DNA of 51,027 nucleotides from Candidatus Altiarchaeota archaeon (GTDB lineage: Archaea; Altiarchaeota; Altiarchaeia; IMC4; SCGC-AAA252-I15): positions 1 to 51,027 of the forward strand of contig JBDRLL010000032.1 of NCBI GenBank assembly GCA_043813075.1, in the 5' to 3' direction. A model generated the notes under the pieces. The model ran no database searches and had not been told where the DNA came from. It saw only the letters and a program-made list of their open reading frames with translations. The position numbers and the translations under genes were made by a program. Shown here in pieces: positions 3,665-10,296 of this stretch (within the stretch, counting starts at the first letter, position 1; each line of letters opens with the position of its first letter).

Positions 3665-3678
3665 TTAACGATTGTTAT
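3665..3678. promoter_or_regulatory. TTAAC-N4-GTTAA-type operator upstream of metY
   Basis: TTAACGATTGTTAT directly downstream of the TATA-like TTTATA (3653-3658). Confidence 0.6.
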
Positions 3679-3703: not shown

Positions 3704-4996
3704 ATGACAGGCAAAAAACACGGAATCGAGACGAAAGCATTGCACGCAGGACAGGATCCAGACCCAACGACCCTATCCAGGGCAGTACCCCTATACCGGA
3801 CAAGCAGCTACGTCTTCAAGGACACGGAACACGCGGCAAACCTTTTCGGGCTTAAGGAGCTGGGCAACATCTACACCCGCTTGATGAACCCGACCACAGA
3901 CGTGCTAGAGAAAAGGCTCGCAGAACTAGAGGGCGGCGTTGGGGCGCTAGCAGTATCGTCAGGAACGACAGCCATATTCTACAGCATAGTGAACCTGGCT
4001 AGGATAGGCGACGAGATAGCATCGGCAAACGACCTCTACGGCGGAACATACACCCAGTTCAACAACATACTCCCAGACTTCGGGATAAAAACAAACTTCG
4101 TGGACCCCACCGACCCGGACAACTTCAAGAAAGCCGTAACAGACAAGACAAAAGCATTGTACTCCGAGACCATCGGAAACCCGGCATTGAATGTCCCAGA
4201 CTTCAAGGCAATCGCAGACATAGCCCACGACAACGGGATACCCTACATAGTCGACAGCACATTCACCACACCCTACCTGCTGAATCCCATAGAACACGGC
4301 GTAGACATCATAGACTACTCGCTCACCAAATGGATCGGCGGCCACGGCACCGCAATAGGCGGCGCGGTCGTGGACTTCGGGAAATTCGAATGGAGCAAGT
4401 CAAAAAAACACCCGCTCATGACAGAGCCTGATGAAAGCTACCATGGAATAAGATACGCCCACGACCTCGGAGACATGAGCCCACTCGCATACATACTGCG
4501 CATGAGACTCGTCCCGCTCCGCAACCTCGGGGGATGCATATCACCAGACAACTCCTGGATATTCCTTCAGGGACTTGAGACACTGCCCCTGAGGATGGAG
4601 CGTCACTGCGAGAACTCGCTTAAGACAGCGGAACACCTGAGCGCCCACGACAAGGTGGAGTCAGTCAGCTATCCTGGCCTCGACACCCACCCGACGAACG
4701 ACAACGCCAGGAAATACCTTAAGAAAGGGTACGGTTCCGTGGTAGTATTTGAGGTGAAGGGCGGCGCAAAGGCGGGACGCAAGTTCATAGAGTCGCTGGA
4801 ACTCTTCAGTCACCTCGCCAACGTTGGCGATGCAAAGAGCCTCGCCATACACCCGGCGAGCACAACACACAGCCAGCTGACAGAGAATCAACAGAAACAA
4901 GGAGGGATAACGCCAGGACTAATACGATTGTCTATCGGAATAGAGGACATCGGGGACATAACCTCAGACATAGACCAGGCGTTAAGCAGGATATAA
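3704..4996 (+). CDS. metY: O-acetylhomoserine aminocarboxypropyltransferase (sulfhydrylase)
   Basis: GNIYTRLMNPT, PLP-lysine motif SLTKWIGGHG, HLANVGDAKSLAIHPASTTHSQL. Confidence 0.95.
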   Translation: MTGKKHGIETKALHAGQDPDPTTLSRAVPLYRTSSYVFKDTEHAANLFGLKELGNIYTRLMNPTTDVLEKRLAELEGGVGALAVSSGTTAIFYSIVNLARIGDEIASANDLYGGTYTQFNNILPDFGIKTNFVDPTDPDNFKKAVTDKTKALYSETIGNPALNVPDFKAIADIAHDNGIPYIVDSTFTTPYLLNPIEHGVDIIDYSLTKWIGGHGTAIGGAVVDFGKFEWSKSKKHPLMTEPDESYHGIRYAHDLGDMSPLAYILRMRLVPLRNLGGCISPDNSWIFLQGLETLPLRMERHCENSLKTAEHLSAHDKVESVSYPGLDTHPTNDNARKYLKKGYGSVVVFEVKGGAKAGRKFIESLELFSHLANVGDAKSLAIHPASTTHSQLTENQQKQGGITPGLIRLSIGIEDIGDITSDIDQALSRI

Positions 4997-4997
4997 C

Positions 4998-6110
4998 ATG
5001 GCGAAGAATCAAGGATCACTCGGGGTTGTGAAGACCAAGCACTACGACTTCAACGAGCTAACACTGGACAGCGGTGAGAAGATCAGCCCTGTGAGGATAG
5101 CGTACGAAACCTACGGGAGGCTCAACAAGGAGAAAAACAACGCAATCCTCATATGCCACGCCCTGAGCGGAGACGCGCACGCGGCAGGAAAACACCGTAA
5201 AAACAGCCGGAAAAACGGGTGGTACGACATCGCGGTCGGCCCGGGCAAGACCTTCGACACGCGCAAATACTTCGTCATATGCTCCAACGTAATCGGCGGC
5301 TGCAGGGGCTCCACAGGACCCTCATCCAAAAACCCGAAGACAGGCAAGCCATACGGTCTTGACTTTCCCACAATAACGGTCGGAGACATGGTCCGCGCCC
5401 AGAAGAGGCTGGTCGAACACCTGGGCGTAAGCAGGCTAAAATGCATTGTCGGAGGGAGTCTGGGCGGCATGCAGGTCCTCGAATGGGTTGCCAGATACCC
5501 TGACGCAAGCGAAAAGGCGATTGCAATAGCAACAGCCGCACGGCAATACCCTCTCGGCATAGCACTGCACGACGTCGGCAGACAGGCCATAATAAACGAC
5601 CCCTCATGGAGGAAAGGAGACTACTACTCAAAGGGACAGCCGAAGGAGGGTCTTGCACTAGCCAGAAAAGTGGCTCACATATCCTACCTAAGCCACGAGA
5701 CCTTCGAACGAAAGTTCGGGAGAGCAAGGAAAAAACGGAGAAACGGTAAGTTCAGCACAGAGTTCGAAGTGCAGAGCTACCTGAACTACCAGGGCAGCAG
5801 TTTCGTGAGGAGATTCGACGCCAACAGCTACTTGTACATAACAAACGCGATAGACCAGTTCGACCTCACCGAAGGGGGGAGAAAAAAGCTGAAGGACCTC
5901 TTCAAGAACGCCAAATCCAAGTTCCTCTTGGTTTCATTCACATCCGACTGGCTATACCCCCCGGAACAGGTCGAAGAGGTTTTCAACGCACTGGCGGAAT
6001 CAGGGATACCGTCGGTATACAGGAATCTAGACCTGCCATATGGCCACGACGCCTTTCTAGTATACAACAACACGCTCGGCAACGCGCTCTCGGGCTTCAT
6101 CAACGACTAG
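4998..6110 (+). CDS. metX: Homoserine O-acetyltransferase
   Basis: CHALSGDAH, nucleophile elbow GGSLGGMQ, RFDANSY, GHDAFL. Confidence 0.95.
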   Translation: MAKNQGSLGVVKTKHYDFNELTLDSGEKISPVRIAYETYGRLNKEKNNAILICHALSGDAHAAGKHRKNSRKNGWYDIAVGPGKTFDTRKYFVICSNVIGGCRGSTGPSSKNPKTGKPYGLDFPTITVGDMVRAQKRLVEHLGVSRLKCIVGGSLGGMQVLEWVARYPDASEKAIAIATAARQYPLGIALHDVGRQAIINDPSWRKGDYYSKGQPKEGLALARKVAHISYLSHETFERKFGRARKKRRNGKFSTEFEVQSYLNYQGSSFVRRFDANSYLYITNAIDQFDLTEGGRKKLKDLFKNAKSKFLLVSFTSDWLYPPEQVEEVFNALAESGIPSVYRNLDLPYGHDAFLVYNNTLGNALSGFIND

Positions 6111-6403
6111 ACATGTTTAGCCGCATTCCTGCAGCACCTGCATATCAACCTGGAGACGACATCATCACTGCTGTCTGCGCTGATTTCGACAGCAGCTTTG
6201 GCAATCATCTCCCTGTACCCTGCGGGCATCCTCCCTCCACCTCCGCGCTTCTTGTGCAGATACTGGGATACAGCGGACGGGGTTATGTCCAGCACCCTGG
6301 CGACATCCTTCTGCCGCATCCCGTTCTTAACGAGCTCCCTCGCCAAATCCGCCCTTATACGGGGCAGAGTGTACCATATAGCTTCCTCACACGGTAATGC
6401 CAT
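6107..6403 (-). CDS. Archaeal HTH transcriptional regulator (COG2522-like) with N- and C-terminal cysteines
   Basis: LPCE..., HTH QKDVARVLDITPSAVSQYL, C-terminal ICRCCR; divergent from cysK. Confidence 0.85.
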   Translation of the reverse strand: MALPCEEAIWYTLPRIRADLARELVKNGMRQKDVARVLDITPSAVSQYLHKKRGGGGRMPAGYREMIAKAAVEISADSSDDVVSRLICRCCRNAAKHV

Positions 6404-6410
6404 GATACTA

Positions 6411-6424
6411 TTAACTATAGTTAA
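6411..6424. promoter_or_regulatory. Perfect 14-bp palindrome; operator in front of the HTH gene
   Basis: TTAACTATAGTTAA between TATA (6426-6433) and the ATG at 6403. Confidence 0.7.
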
Positions 6425-6447
6425 GTTTTTATACTAGTATGTCACAA

Positions 6448-6465
6448 TATTAACAATTGTTAATA
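6448..6465. promoter_or_regulatory. Perfect 18-bp palindrome; operator at the cys operon promoter
   Basis: TATTAACAATTGTTAATA, over the expected transcription start downstream of TTTTTATA (6426-6433). Confidence 0.7.
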
Positions 6466-6467
6466 AA

Positions 6468-6545
6468 ATGGTTGGATTGCTTTACCTCCTCAGAGGGGCA
6501 GGAACCCCACTGACATGTCCGTGTCCCTGCCAGTGTCGGGTCTAG
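6468..6545 (+). CDS. Putative Cys-rich leader peptide of the cys operon (25 aa)
   Basis: MVGLLYLLRGAGTPLTCPCPCQCRV*; four Cys codons in 7 positions, between the promoter and cysK. Confidence 0.65.
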   Translation: MVGLLYLLRGAGTPLTCPCPCQCRV

Positions 6546-6634
6546 ACACCCGCACACACCATTAACCCACACGGACAAACCAAATAAAAAAACCAATTCT
6601 TTTTTACCATCCAACAAAAACCAAAGGTGATAAA

Positions 6635-7561
6635 ATGACGTTAAACAACATACTAAGTACGATAGGCGGCACACCACACGTAAGGCTCCATAAAATGCCT
6701 GCTGAAGGAAGCGCTGAAGTCATCGCCAAGATAGAGTCATTCAACCCAGGCTCCTCAGTCAAAGACAGGATAGCCCTCTACATGATAGAGGCGGCCGAGA
6801 AAGAAGGTCTACTAAGAGAAGACAGCGTTATAGTGGAGCCCACGTCCGGGAACACCGGGATCGGGCTCGCAATGGTGGCTGCAGTCAAAGGATACAAGCT
6901 GAAGCTGACCATGCCGGACACGATGAGCCTTGAACGCAGGAAAATCCTGAAGGCATTCGGCGCGGAACTAGTTCTGACTGAAGGCTCGAAGGGGATGGGC
7001 GGCGCAGTTGAGAAGGCAGTGGAACTAGGCAAACAAGACACCCACGTCTTCATACCCCAACAGTTCAAGAACAAGGCGAACGTGAAAGCCCACGAGGAAA
7101 CCACAGCCAAAGAGATAATGGATGACGTGGGAGAATTCGACGCGTTCGTGGCGGGAGTCGGAACAGGAGGAACAATAACCGGAGTCGCGACCGCACTAAA
7201 AGAAAAACTCCCTTCAGCCAAATTCATCGCAGTGGAGCCTACAACATCACCCGTACTCTCCGGCGGAGAGAAAGGCCCCCACAAGATACAGGGCATCGGC
7301 GCCGGATTCATACCTGACATAATGCGCCTAGACCTGGTGGACGAAGTCATAAAAGTCAAGGATGAAGACGCGTTCAAGACTGCTGAACGCCTCGCCAGGG
7401 AAGAGGGAATACTCGCGGGAATATCCTCCGGAGCCAACACGTGGGCCGCACTAGAGGTAGCGAAAAAACTGGGTGAAGGAAAGAAGGTTGTGGTAATACT
7501 CCCCGACACTGGGGAGAGATACCTTTCGACAAAACTATTCGAGGAACGTGAAGATGCTTGA
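6635..7561 (+). CDS. cysK: Cysteine synthase A
   Basis: [46 protein letters not shown]; SD AGGTGA. Confidence 0.97.
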
Positions 7562-8138
7562 CGTATTCAAGGTAGCCTACGAGAAGGATCCTGCATTAAG
7601 GAAGGGCGTGGGATTCCTGGAGGTCCTCCTATACCCAGGAGTGCAGGCGATAATACTCTACCGGATAGCGCACGCCCTACATAAAACAGGGATGCCCATC
7701 CTACCCCGAGCCATCTCCTACTTTGGCAGGTTCCTGACTGGGGCTGAAATACACCCGGCCGCAAGGATAGGGAAAAGATTCTTCATAGACCACGCCACCG
7801 GCGTGGTCATCGGGGAGACAGCGGAAGTCGGAGACAACGTGATGATGTACCACAACGTCACCCTAGGCGGCCATGGATGGTGGCGCGACAAGAAAGGTGA
7901 GAAAAGACACCCCACAATAGAAGACAACGTGATACTCGGCGTCGGCGCCACAGTACTCGGCCCCGTAACAGTAAAGAAGAACTCGCGGGTGGGTGCGTTG
8001 TCCGTCATAGTCGACGACATACCTGAAGACTCGACGGTCGTATGCCCTAAAGGCAGGCTAAGGATAATGGAAGGATGCTACAAGCGCCTCATAGACCCCT
8101 GCGACCACTGCACTAAAGAACCGGAATGGGTGATATAA
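7548..8138 (+). CDS. cysE: Serine O-acetyltransferase
   Basis: [42 protein letters not shown]; start may be the ATG at 7554. Confidence 0.93.
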
Positions 8139-8203: not shown

Positions 8204-8274
8204 GCGAGGATGCCAGAGCGGCTATGGAGTGGCCTGCAAAGCCATCAACGGGGGTTCAAATCCCTCTCCTCGCT
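8204..8274 (+). tRNA. tRNA-Cys (GCA), intronless, CCA not encoded
   Basis: Acceptor GCGAGGA/TCCTCGC, discriminator U; D stem CCA/TGG; anticodon arm GTGGC-CTGCAAA-GCCAT; T arm GGGGG-TTCAAAT-CCCTC. Confidence 0.95.
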
Positions 8275-8280
8275 CAACCT

Positions 8281-8385: not shown

Positions 8386-9783
8386 ATGAGCCTACGAGTA
8401 TACAACACAATGTCCAGGAGGCTGGAGGAATTCAAGCCCCTCAGCGAAGGCAAGGTCAGTGTATACGTCTGCGGGATGACGGTGTACGACAACATGCACA
8501 TCGGGCACGCGAGGACGTACGTCGCATTCGACGTGATACTACGCTACCTCAAACACAGTGGCTACAAGGTGCGGTACATCCAAAACATCACGGACATAGA
8601 CGACAAGATAATAAACCGGGCCAGAGAACGCGACACCAACCCGATGGAACTATCCAGAGAATACGCTGAAAAAGCACTGAAAGACCAGGAAGCTCTCGGC
8701 CTCATGAAAGCCGACGAATACCCGAAGGTGTCGGAGACCATCCCAGACATAATCAACGCAGCCCAGACCCTGATAAGCAAAGGTCACGCATACGTCGTCA
8801 ACGGCAGCGTATACTTCAGCGTATCGTCCGCCGACGGCTACGGGAAGCTGTCCAACCAGGATATCGAACAGTTGAACAGGCATCGGATAGACCCTGACCC
8901 TGAAAAGAAGGACCCCCTCGACTTCGCACTATGGAAGAGGGTGCCTGACGGGGAACATGGGTTTGAAAGTCCATGGGGCTACGGTAGGCCAGGCTGGCAC
9001 ATAGAATGCTCTGTCATGTCGAAAAAGCATCTCGGCGACAGCTTCGACATACACGGCGGAGCGCTAGACCTCATATTCCCACACCACGAGAACGAGGTGG
9101 CGCAGAGCGAGGCGTTGACAGGTAAAAAACCGTTCGTGAAATACTGGATGCACACCGGCTTCCTCAACTCGTCTGGAGAGAAGATGAGCAAGTCGCTCGG
9201 CAACATACTCTCTGTAAGAGAATTCCTAGACAAACACAGCAAAGACGCGTTCCGGCTGTTCATACTCCAGTCACACTACAGGAGTCCCGTAGACTACGGG
9301 GAAGAAAAAATACATGCAGCTGAAAGCGCTCTTTCGCGGCTAAGGAACTTCAGGAAAAACATGTTGGCAACTTCCGATTCCGCCAGTGAAAACGGCAGTG
9401 AAAAAATTTTTGAGATATTCGAGAGATTTAGGGCAGAGTTCAACGAGGCGATGGACGACGACTTCGACACGCCAAAGGCGATATCCCGGATATTCACTGC
9501 AGTCAAGGACTCAAACACGCTCTTGCCGGGGGGAACGGACTCAAGGGAATCCCTCAGAAAGTCGATTGAAATACTCGACGAACTAGCTGGAGTCATAGGA
9601 CTGAACCTAGTTGAAGACGGTGTTACGCTGACTGACGTCGAAGAGGAGCTGATAGAGCGCCGTAAGCGCCTCCGTGACGAGAAGAACTGGGCGGAATCAG
9701 ACCGCATACGCGGTGAACTCGCGAAACGCGGTCTAAGGATCATAGACAAGAGCGATGGATTAACAATCGTTGAAAGGATTTAA
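8386..9783 (+). CDS. cysS: Cysteine--tRNA ligase (start corrected to the ATG at 8386)
   Basis: MSLRVYNTM, CGMTVYDNMHIGH, DFALWK, GRPGWHIECS, DIHGGALDLIFPHHENE, KMSKS. Confidence 0.97.
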   Translation: MSLRVYNTMSRRLEEFKPLSEGKVSVYVCGMTVYDNMHIGHARTYVAFDVILRYLKHSGYKVRYIQNITDIDDKIINRARERDTNPMELSREYAEKALKDQEALGLMKADEYPKVSETIPDIINAAQTLISKGHAYVVNGSVYFSVSSADGYGKLSNQDIEQLNRHRIDPDPEKKDPLDFALWKRVPDGEHGFESPWGYGRPGWHIECSVMSKKHLGDSFDIHGGALDLIFPHHENEVAQSEALTGKKPFVKYWMHTGFLNSSGEKMSKSLGNILSVREFLDKHSKDAFRLFILQSHYRSPVDYGEEKIHAAESALSRLRNFRKNMLATSDSASENGSEKIFEIFERFRAEFNEAMDDDFDTPKAISRIFTAVKDSNTLLPGGTDSRESLRKSIEILDELAGVIGLNLVEDGVTLTDVEEELIERRKRLRDEKNWAESDRIRGELAKRGLRIIDKSDGLTIVERI

Positions 9784-9813: not shown

Positions 9814-10296
9814 ATGATGGACAGGAAGATCAGCAACAGGATGGTCGGCGGACTGCTCATAGCCCTTGCGTTAGCGGTGTCATACCTGCTGGTATCGTTC
9901 CTGAACATGCTGAACGAGCTGAGCCAGAGCTCTTGCACGTGCGGCGACACCTGCAACATGGTCCACTATGATACTCCCGCAACATTCTACCTCGGGTTCA
10001 TAGCAGTATTCATCCTACTATTCATCGGCATATACATATTCGCGAAGAAGGAGCCTGCCACAACATCGGACCGGAAGGAAAAGTGGTCTGAAAAACTCAG
10101 CACCCTCGACGCCGACGAGAAGGTGGTATTCACGCTGCTTATGGAGTCGGATGGCACGCTATTCCAAAGCGAGATAGTCGAGAAGACTGGGCTATCCAAG
10201 GTGAAGGTCACGCGGATACTCGACAAACTAGAGTCTCGTATGATGGTGGAACGCAGGAGACGCGGCCTCACAAACATAGTGGTCATCAAGGATTGA
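9814..10296 (+). CDS. Membrane-anchored winged-HTH protein (COG2512-like)
   Basis: Two TM segments around a CTCGDTC loop; C-terminal QSEIVEKTGLSKVKVTRILDKLE...RRRRGLTN. Confidence 0.8.
   Translation: MMDRKISNRMVGGLLIALALAVSYLLVSFLNMLNELSQSSCTCGDTCNMVHYDTPATFYLGFIAVFILLFIGIYIFAKKEPATTSDRKEKWSEKLSTLDADEKVVFTLLMESDGTLFQSEIVEKTGLSKVKVTRILDKLESRMMVERRRRGLTNIVVIKD

Follow-up and report, generated by a model that had tools for sequence, protein, structure and literature searches.

Leader-peptide attenuation is a textbook bacterial mechanism, and the trp, his, leu, and thr leaders of enteric bacteria are its classical ribosome-mediated examples. These leaders contain an ORF rich in codons for the end product, a run of U before the first structural gene, and a hairpin whose 5′ arm is formed by the final part of the ORF, as in the 1:2 pause hairpin. 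The cysK leader of Altiarchaeota described here shares this arrangement; however, it has no conserved antiterminator/terminator pair, and its hairpin, designated H1, ends approximately 35–45 nt before the T-tract. TnaC is a leader of approximately 24 codons. The ribosome translating it is held close to the final codons, a G-poor spacer follows, and Rho-dependent termination in the tna operon depends on the ribosome having left. The Altiarchaeota leader resembles TnaC in its length, its spacer, and the predicted position of the held ribosome, whereas TnaC responds to free tryptophan by way of its nascent peptide and not to tRNA charging, and the termination factor in Altiarchaeota would be aCPSF1/FttA.

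Cys leader peptides were predicted upstream of cys/cbs operons of actinobacteria (PMC1262725), and a Cys leader of Mycobacterium smegmatis, Ms5788A, was tested experimentally (10.1101/834739). The former study proposed in 2005 a factor-dependent, tna-like termination for the actinobacterial leaders, and the latter outlines a general scheme of ribosome-mediated attenuation. As described in these two sources, the actinobacterial leaders resemble the Altiarchaeota leader in three respects: a cysteine-biosynthesis operon has a short ORF at the 5′ end of its transcript or close to it (a predicted transcript in our case), this ORF carries a run of Cys codons shortly before its stop codon, and a classical terminator hairpin is lacking. 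The Altiarchaeota leader differs in being archaeal, with Rho absent and a promoter of the TATA/BRE type, in having a conserved hairpin over the stop codon together with a U-tract, and in having no pairing between the Cys tract and the Shine-Dalgarno (SD) sequence; there was no sequence relationship between the two.

In its tract of five to nine T residues, for which a hairpin is not required, the Altiarchaeota leader is similar to the archaeal U-tract/aCPSF1 terminators (PMC8716108, PMC11616081). Such terminators are known at gene ends or inside operons (PMC10450193), whereas none of those found in these sources follows a leader ORF and depends on translation. Promoter recruitment has been called the only known target of archaeal transcription regulation (PMC8448881), and our literature search found no archaeal leader-peptide attenuator. 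Judged by its sequence, the cysK leader has the appearance of a leader-peptide attenuator, which would be the first known from Archaea.

The cysK locus and its leader frame

The window, by which we mean the whole 51,027-nt stretch of DNA that was analyzed, came from an Altiarchaeota MAG and was found by ORF calls, Pfam and TIGRFAM-type profile searches, and a tRNA search to carry a sulfur amino-acid gene cluster. Its features around cysK were as follows.

3704–4996, metY
4998–6110, metX
6107–6403, minus strand, divergent HTH regulator of 98 aa (Pfam HTH_3, 24.2 bits)
6411–6424, operator 1, TTAACTATAGTTAA, between the A/T box and the regulator start
6426–6435, TATA-like A/T box TTTTTATACT (TTTTTATAC = 6426–6434), 34 nt before the leader ATG
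6450–6463, operator 2, TTAACAATTGTTAA, overlapping the expected start of the leader-cysK transcript and ending 4 nt before the leader ATG
6468–6545, plus strand, leader ORF of 25 codons encoding MVGLLYLLRGAGTPLTCPCPCQCRV*, with the stop codon TAG at 6543–6545
6516–6518, 6522–6524, 6528–6530, and 6534–6536, plus strand, leader Cys codons
6533–6557, plus strand, hairpin H1, with the 5′ arm GUGUCGGGU (last Cys, Arg, and Val codons) and the 3′ arm ACCCG(C)ACAC
6558–6596, plus strand, G-poor, C/A-rich spacer containing a GGAC box at 6573–6576
6597–6605, plus strand, T-tract TTCTTTTTT, a candidate archaeal terminator (attenuator)
6626–6631, plus strand, SD sequence of cysK, GGTGAT
6635–7561, plus strand, cysK, O-acetylserine sulfhydrylase, with its ATG at 6635 (TIGR01139, 441.8 bits; cut-off, 350.95)
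7548–8138, plus strand, cysE-like serine O-acetyltransferase gene, overlapping the end of cysK by 14 nt
8204–8275, plus strand, tRNA-Cys (GCA), the sole tRNA-Cys gene found in the assembly
8386–9783, plus strand, cysS, cysteinyl-tRNA synthetase (Pfam tRNA-synt_1e, 414.3 bits), its predicted start being the first ATG past the tRNA gene

The intergenic region between the regulator and cysK was 231 nt long. The product of the cysE-like gene scored 198 bits with TIGR01172, below the cut-off of 210.65, and 191.2 bits with NF041874, above the cut-off of 150. Nine further loci had cysK-cysE followed by tRNA-Cys on the same strand, and GGTGA preceded cysK in most of the loci inspected.

The loci compared came from 41 related species-representative genomes, 61 Altiarchaeota genomes, and protein searches giving 80 genome and 80 metagenome loci. 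Eighteen of the Altiarchaeota representative-genome loci were usable, with upstream sequence, and 16 of these carried a short frame between the promoter/operator and cysK; the frame was also carried by all seven metagenome loci whose cysK was 76–81% identical. Including that of the window there were 23 distinct leaders in total, counts that are descriptive and neither independent nor a statistical test because the loci are phylogenetically related. The operator scan added two leaders at contig ends, L201 and L209, beyond the 23. We left out L015 (a contig without upstream sequence), L018–L020 (weak matches that were not cysK), L023–L030 (duplicates of loci in the genome set), and three metagenome controls with upstream sequences shorter than 150 nt. 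The conservation of a Cys-rich upstream ORF in related archaea, on which the first-pass annotation had made its proposal of a cysteine-sensing leader depend, was borne out by a C-terminally Cys-rich ORF at the same place in orthologous cysK loci. Upstream of cysK outside Altiarchaeota, an ATG frame of 8–45 codons with at least three Cys was present in 2 of 72 genome and 7 of 70 metagenome sequences. The two usable loci without the frame were L014 and L016 (49%-identical paralogue), in both of which a TATA box and operator-like sequences closely precede the start of cysK. Because the promoters of these two loci adjoin cysK, the frame, hairpin, and T-tract of the other loci are best described as an insert between promoter and gene.

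The 25-codon frame with four Cys codons at alternate positions, as first annotated, was confirmed at 6468–6545. The frames of the 23 loci had 18–25 codons, and their first halves were unalignable between genera. Cys occupied 79 of the 230 final-ten codons and 4 of the 281 earlier ones, that is, 83 of 511 leader codons overall, compared with approximately 1.7% in the open frames of at least 250 aa in this genome. Although 18 of the 23 leaders had at least three Cys, the number ranged from one to seven with variable spacing, and L012 and L107 had a single Cys codon. Codon −3, which lies inside the 5′ arm of H1, was Cys in 20 of the 23 leaders, codon −8 in 15, and codon −5 in 12. The leader Cys codons were TGT in 58 cases and TGC in 25, opposite to the long open frames of the genome (2107 and 6109, respectively). 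When the intergenic regions of this genome were scanned for short ORFs with runs of Cys, Trp, His, or Met, 48 hits were obtained (nested starts counted), 16 of which had a downstream ORF. Only three distinct cases were of the Cys type, the cysK leader being one, and the scan gave no obvious Trp or His leader, the genes downstream of the hits being unannotated.

Hairpin, spacer, and T-tract downstream of the Cys codons

The final three to four codons of the frame formed the 5′ arm of H1, the stop codon lay in its loop, and the 3′ arm followed directly. The folding energy in the window was −12.5 kcal/mol for the 42 nt around the stop codon. Per-locus energy folds, a procedure that leans towards finding pairs, gave H1 in every one of the 23 loci, its energy averaging −10.3 kcal/mol. 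The pair tables from these folds contained compensatory changes, namely A-U, C-G, or U-A at position −6 and, at both −3 and −4, G-C or C-G, and G-U pairs were frequent on the sense strand. The first-pass annotation had included GTGTC/GACAC and CGGGT/ACCCG among its possible stems and had suggested a check for covariation; these segments make up H1, and they varied with compensation across the loci. In an arm-swap control, the native hairpins averaged −10.33 kcal/mol and 480 chimeras −6.87 kcal/mol, corresponding to a mean swap cost of 3.5 kcal/mol, and the native hairpin was better than the mean of its own chimeras in 20 of the 23 loci. A covariance model of H1 recovered 17 of the leaders and two weak chance matches. 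The alignment fitted to this model gave a weak covariation count (paired cells, 59.9%, versus 57.2% when shuffled and 61.1% when slid by +1), which we attribute to a one-base register split of the 3′ arms in the alignment, although as it stands the count does not support H1. The many G-U pairs suggested that H1 acts as RNA rather than as a DNA site. H1 had also been considered as a DNA operator, and this candidate was rejected, since the arms vary while preserving their complementarity and the sense strand has many G-U pairs. The region 6460–6640 as a whole folded at −45.4 kcal/mol (z = −3.05), and none of 200 shuffled sequences folded as well. That the leader exceeds chance is nevertheless established by its conservation across loci and not by this one sequence.

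The G-poor tract and the U-tract before the cysK SD sequence, both pointed out in the first-pass annotation, were present in the window and conserved across loci. The pooled spacers of the 23 loci contained 6.9% G, compared with 25% in the frame, and their G residues were concentrated in a GGAY box, which was located at +24 to +32 from the stop codon in 17 of the 23 loci and at a median of 16.5 nt from the end of H1. A run of at least five T was found in the spacers of 18 of the 23 loci, compared with 3.6 loci on average and never more than 9 in 1000 shuffles. The distance from the stop codon to the start of this run, of five to nine T, was 38–57 nt in 17 loci and 23 nt in L017, and the tract ended mostly 27–36 nt upstream of the cysK ATG. 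Among the five loci without such a run, three had short spacers. A scan for bacterial-type terminators consisting of a hairpin plus T residues gave no sites. In this genome, at least five T followed 16% of the long ORFs, compared with 3% within coding sequence, and an orthologue of FttA/aCPSF1 was encoded (TIGR03675, 906.9 bits; cut-off, 580.2). The two marks of an archaeal U-tract terminator, a U-rich tract and the gene for the factor, were both present in the sequence.

Promoter, paired operators, and a divergent regulator

Of the 22 tabulated loci, 21 had a match to TTTAWA 36–45 nt 5′ of the leader ATG. This distance suggests a 5′ UTR of several nucleotides; the usual archaeal spacing from TATA box to start would place the leader ATG approximately 6–12 nt from the 5′ end of the transcript. 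The ORF is close to its promoter, as was claimed when it was described as near-leaderless, but a short 5′ leader is to be expected from the TATA spacing, and the ORF would not be leaderless in the strict sense. The A/T box was also approximately 31 nt upstream of the ATG of the divergent regulator (6403). Because this spacing is suitable for the regulator as well, the box may serve both strands, and it is probably used in both directions.

Two operators and a divergent HTH regulator, which do not appear in the first-pass annotation, were observed around this promoter. The operators were near-identical TTAAC-N4-GTTAA palindromes flanking the A/T box. Operator 1 is likely to autoregulate the HTH gene because it is placed between the A/T box and the regulator start. 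In 17 of 22 loci, 1–8 nt separated the end of the palindrome from the leader ATG. The pattern TTAACAATNGTTAA was found in 24 of the 61 Altiarchaeota genomes, whereas the reversed control pattern was found in none; the palindrome was absent from the non-Altiarchaeota cysK upstream sequences searched (72 genome and 70 metagenome). It was located upstream of metY, a class-V aminotransferase of the cysteine desulfurase type, ThiS-family proteins, Thi4, and a PALP enzyme, and also upstream of PdxS, ApbE, a solute-binding protein, and the gene of the regulator itself. One genome had the palindrome before tRNA-Cys with cysS, and the window contained near-matches before metY (3665–3678) and before the gene after cysS (9760–9773). 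From this distribution, the palindrome appears to mark a sulfur regulon. Within the regulon the Cys frame was limited to cysK, including a second, 48%-identical cysK paralogue in genome G024. Several long regulon genes begin 1–12 nt past the palindrome, like the leader ATG, and a start codon in that position is therefore evidently usable.

The regulator had 53 homologues, with no characterized member among them, and the cysteines C5, C88, C90, and C91 were invariant across the family. In addition to the locus of the window, it was divergent from cysK in the loci of 10 relatives. Searching PDB sequences with the regulator yielded nothing informative (best E-value, 0.00079 over 29 residues). The HTH protein is presumably a repressor that acts on the TTAAC-N4-GTTAA operators and would provide a second layer of control at transcription initiation.

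Proposed attenuator and competing readings

We propose that 6468–6605 is a ribosome-occupancy attenuator that senses Cys-tRNA and has termination at the T-tract as its output, and we assign this reading a probability of roughly 55%. The leader anatomy is conserved; the transcription start, the translation of the frame, the stalling, the regulated step, and the Cys response of the leader are what we infer from it. Transcription from the operator-controlled promoter would start a few bases 5′ of the leader ATG, and a ribosome would translate the 25-codon frame, in which the Cys codons are inside or just 5′ of the 5′ arm of H1. With ample Cys-tRNA, the ribosome would reach the stop codon in the H1 loop and depart, H1 would fold, and RNA polymerase would traverse the unstructured G-poor spacer without an escorting ribosome; termination, intrinsic or through aCPSF1/FttA, would then occur at the T-tract approximately 50 nt farther on, and cysK expression would be low. 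With scarce Cys-tRNA, the ribosome would pause on the Cys codons (−5 or −3) and cover the 5′ arm of H1, so that H1 would be kept open, the ribosome would be retained behind the polymerase, termination would be lowered, and cysK would be transcribed. The leader would in this way make the expression of cysK-cysE, and possibly that of tRNA-Cys and cysS, dependent on how much charged tRNA-Cys is available. The factor aCPSF1/FttA binds U-rich RNA 30–36 nt behind the RNA 3′ end (PMC11616081); from this recognition distance, the polymerase would have reached the vicinity of the cysK start by the time the T-tract is engaged by FttA.

The first-pass annotation had placed the switch in competing stems and, in particular, in the Cys-Pro-Cys codons. 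The segment TGTCCGTGT at 6516–6524 was exactly complementary to ACACGGACA at 6569–6577, and GGCAGG/CCTGCC, CACTG/CAGTG, GTGTC/GACAC, and CGGGT/ACCCG were all present in the window sequence. However, apart from H1 none of the listed stems was conserved, and the 9-nt complement was significant in the window only (L001, z = −3.7), so that a switch of this kind is not supported. Among the 17 loci with a GGAY box, a pairing of the box region corresponding to this complement was otherwise significant in L007 and L108 only (z = −2.2), with a different partner. The Cys tract showed no excess complementarity to the region before the SD sequence (mean z = 0.19; 1 of 23 loci below −1.64), and the mean z was near 0 for the Cys tract against the spacer and for the N-terminal part against the pre-SD region. 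RNAalifold on a MAFFT alignment of the 23 leaders gave no consensus structure. Mutually exclusive antiterminator and terminator hairpins were not found, H1 being the sole conserved structure, nor was a conserved alternative pairing found in the 23 leaders that would explain how a stalled ribosome blocks termination. Because there is neither conserved alternative pairing nor pairing of the Cys tract with the SD sequence, neither the trp-type logic nor the mycobacterial logic of SD masking was borne out. In its sequence features, the Altiarchaeota leader falls outside the structural definitions of both classes and carries what appear to be archaeal promoter and termination signals.

A more specific form of the attenuator, which we hold only tentatively, is an archaeal ribosome-mediated type without alternative RNA structures, in which the stalled ribosome itself is the antiterminator and H1 and the GGAY box act as a synchronizing pause. 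The ribosome holding H1 open would keep aCPSF1/FttA away from the RNA or from the polymerase with its bound Spt5, and its release at the stop codon would permit termination at the U-tract. Two possible routes to antitermination, both in keeping with the constant distance between H1 and the GGAY box and with published structures, are a pause at H1 and the GGAY box that is released by the approaching ribosome, and a mutual exclusion of ribosome and FttA on Spt5, the latter put forward as a hypothesis only in PMC11616081. The weak point of a ribosome-occupancy attenuator is the precedent of bacterial polarity: a ribosome that stalls at a great distance behind the polymerase might just as well favor factor-dependent termination as prevent it.

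The same Cys-sensing leader might act on the translation or stability of the cysK message and not on termination, as the leaderless ORF of mycobacteria, with Cys codons at its 3′ end, controls downstream translation (10.1101/834739). The ORF, H1, and a strong SD sequence are retained in three leaders that lack a T-rich tract (L008, L009, and L011), in line with such an output. We consider it unlikely, as the pairing between Cys tract and SD sequence that defines it was not found in the comparison described above and the strongly non-random T-tract would be left unexplained.

The promoter-like and terminator-like signals at the two ends of the frame would also fit an independent gene for a Cys-rich peptide, which might serve as a thiol or metal ligand or associate with the regulator; cysK would then be transcribed from a second promoter with the T-rich tract as its TATA box. 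Some T-rich tracts, such as those of L007 and L013, resemble the local TATA consensus and could for this reason be a second promoter, at approximately 27–36 nt before the cysK ATG. Many of the tracts, however, are pure runs of eight or nine T, and a start approximately 25 nt past the tract would land on or after the SD sequence. The variable number (one to seven) and spacing of Cys and the unalignable remainder of the peptide make the frame unlike a folded or binding peptide. In addition, L014 and L016 have no frame and keep the TATA box and operator-like sequences directly 5′ of cysK, which speaks for cysK being served by the promoter that precedes the frame. A separate peptide gene is, in our estimate, quite improbable.

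Very improbable is a conserved RNA element of H1, GGAY box, and T-tract that is bound by a protein or ligand, with the frame incidental: the positions of H1 and the GGAY box are fixed and the box had no conserved pairing partner in the 17 loci carrying it, but an incidental frame would not have retained together, despite unalignable sequence and length changes, its ATG 1–8 nt past the operator, its length of 18–25 codons, its in-frame Cys codons, and its stop codon in the H1 loop, and an Rfam search of the region gave no relevant family (best E-values, 4.7 and 5.8, to unrelated eukaryotic families).

If the ribosome-occupancy attenuator at the T-tract is the correct reading, a Cys leader placed before a U-tract would be a compact natural substrate for asking whether archaeal transcription-translation coupling controls termination, and it could address the exclusion of FttA/aCPSF1 by the ribosome. 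The leader would also bear on the translation of short-leader mRNAs in a deep-branching uncultured lineage. Sulfur amino-acid synthesis in these archaea would be under two-layer control, consisting of a presumed Cys-rich HTH repressor and a predicted sensor of tRNA charging, and an operon that contains the tRNA-Cys gene of the cell together with cysS would close a feedback loop on the very molecule that is sensed.

Palindrome-associated genes and the HTH regulator

In a pattern scan, the operator palindrome TTAACAATNGTTAA was found in 24 of 61 Altiarchaeota genomes; its reversed form, used as a control, matched in none of the 61. The sites across these genomes correspond to loci L183–L226; those in the window, with the other features discussed here, are listed below.

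Features in the window and on contig C11 of the same genome
3665–3678, 6411–6424, 6450–6463 and 9760–9773: palindrome sites, the first and last being near-matches
6107–6403 (−): 98-aa HTH regulator with four invariant cysteines, C5, C88, C90 and C91
8161–8168 and 8183–8190: arms of an inverted repeat
8204–8275 (same strand as cysK-cysE): tRNA-Cys(GCA), directly 3′ of cysK-cysE and 5′ of cysS
9814–10296 (+): membrane-anchored winged-helix-like protein, copy 1, after cysS
C11 52458–53072 (locus L191): membrane-anchored winged-helix-like protein, copy 2

The genes downstream of the palindrome included metY, a cysteine-desulfurase-type aminotransferase, ThiS-family genes, Thi4, PdxS, ApbE, a PALP enzyme, a solute-binding protein, and the HTH regulator's own gene, and in the related genome G024 the palindrome was located upstream of tRNA-Cys with cysS. 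The palindrome marks a sulfur-related regulon in Altiarchaeota. The four invariant cysteines of the HTH regulator suggested a sensor of the metal, Fe-S or thiol type. The homologues of the regulator are uncharacterised and include Chlorobiaceae proteins, some termed "Fis family" in their sources. The two copies of the membrane-anchored protein, each preceded by the operator, had a winged-helix-like C-terminal part, and the C11 copy had no Pfam match.

Codon usage in the leaders

In the 23 leader ORFs (window 6468–6545 and relatives), the Cys codons were TGT in 58 cases versus TGC in 25, whereas the long open frames of the window's own genome showed the opposite bias, with TGC exceeding TGT approximately 3:1. 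This TGT bias is partly fixed by the stem of H1, the hairpin whose 5′ arm consists of the last leader codons. Pro frequently stood immediately 5′ of a Cys codon, as in Cys-Pro-Cys-Pro-Cys of the window leader and Pro-Cys-Arg-Val of single-Cys leaders, and both the TGT preference and Pro-before-Cys could slow decoding.

tRNA-Cys downstream of cysK-cysE

A tRNA-Cys placed after cysK-cysE on the same strand also occurred at cysK loci L005, L006, L008, L011, L012, L105, L106, and L109. The window gene was the sole tRNA-Cys detected by ARAGORN in the 89%-complete assembly, in which only 14 tRNAs were detected in total. Just 5′ of it lay the perfect 8-bp inverted repeat AGGACTAG/CTAGTCCT, which shares the word GGACTA with the leader GGAY box (a G cluster in the leader–cysK spacer) of several relatives; the repeat could form a processing structure or have arisen by chance.

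Possible further Cys leaders

At L221:1027–1100 (contig C51 of the related genome G006), the operator was followed after 4 nt by a 13-codon frame with Cys-Cys, whose stop lay 16 nt 5′ of an ApbE-family gene. This single instance may represent a second, minimal Cys leader. In L153, a non-Altiarchaeota metagenome contig with a 61% identical cysK, a 25-codon ATG frame ending in Cys-Phe-Cys was located 163 nt 5′ of cysK, and Cys leaders may occur in lineages beyond Altiarchaeota.
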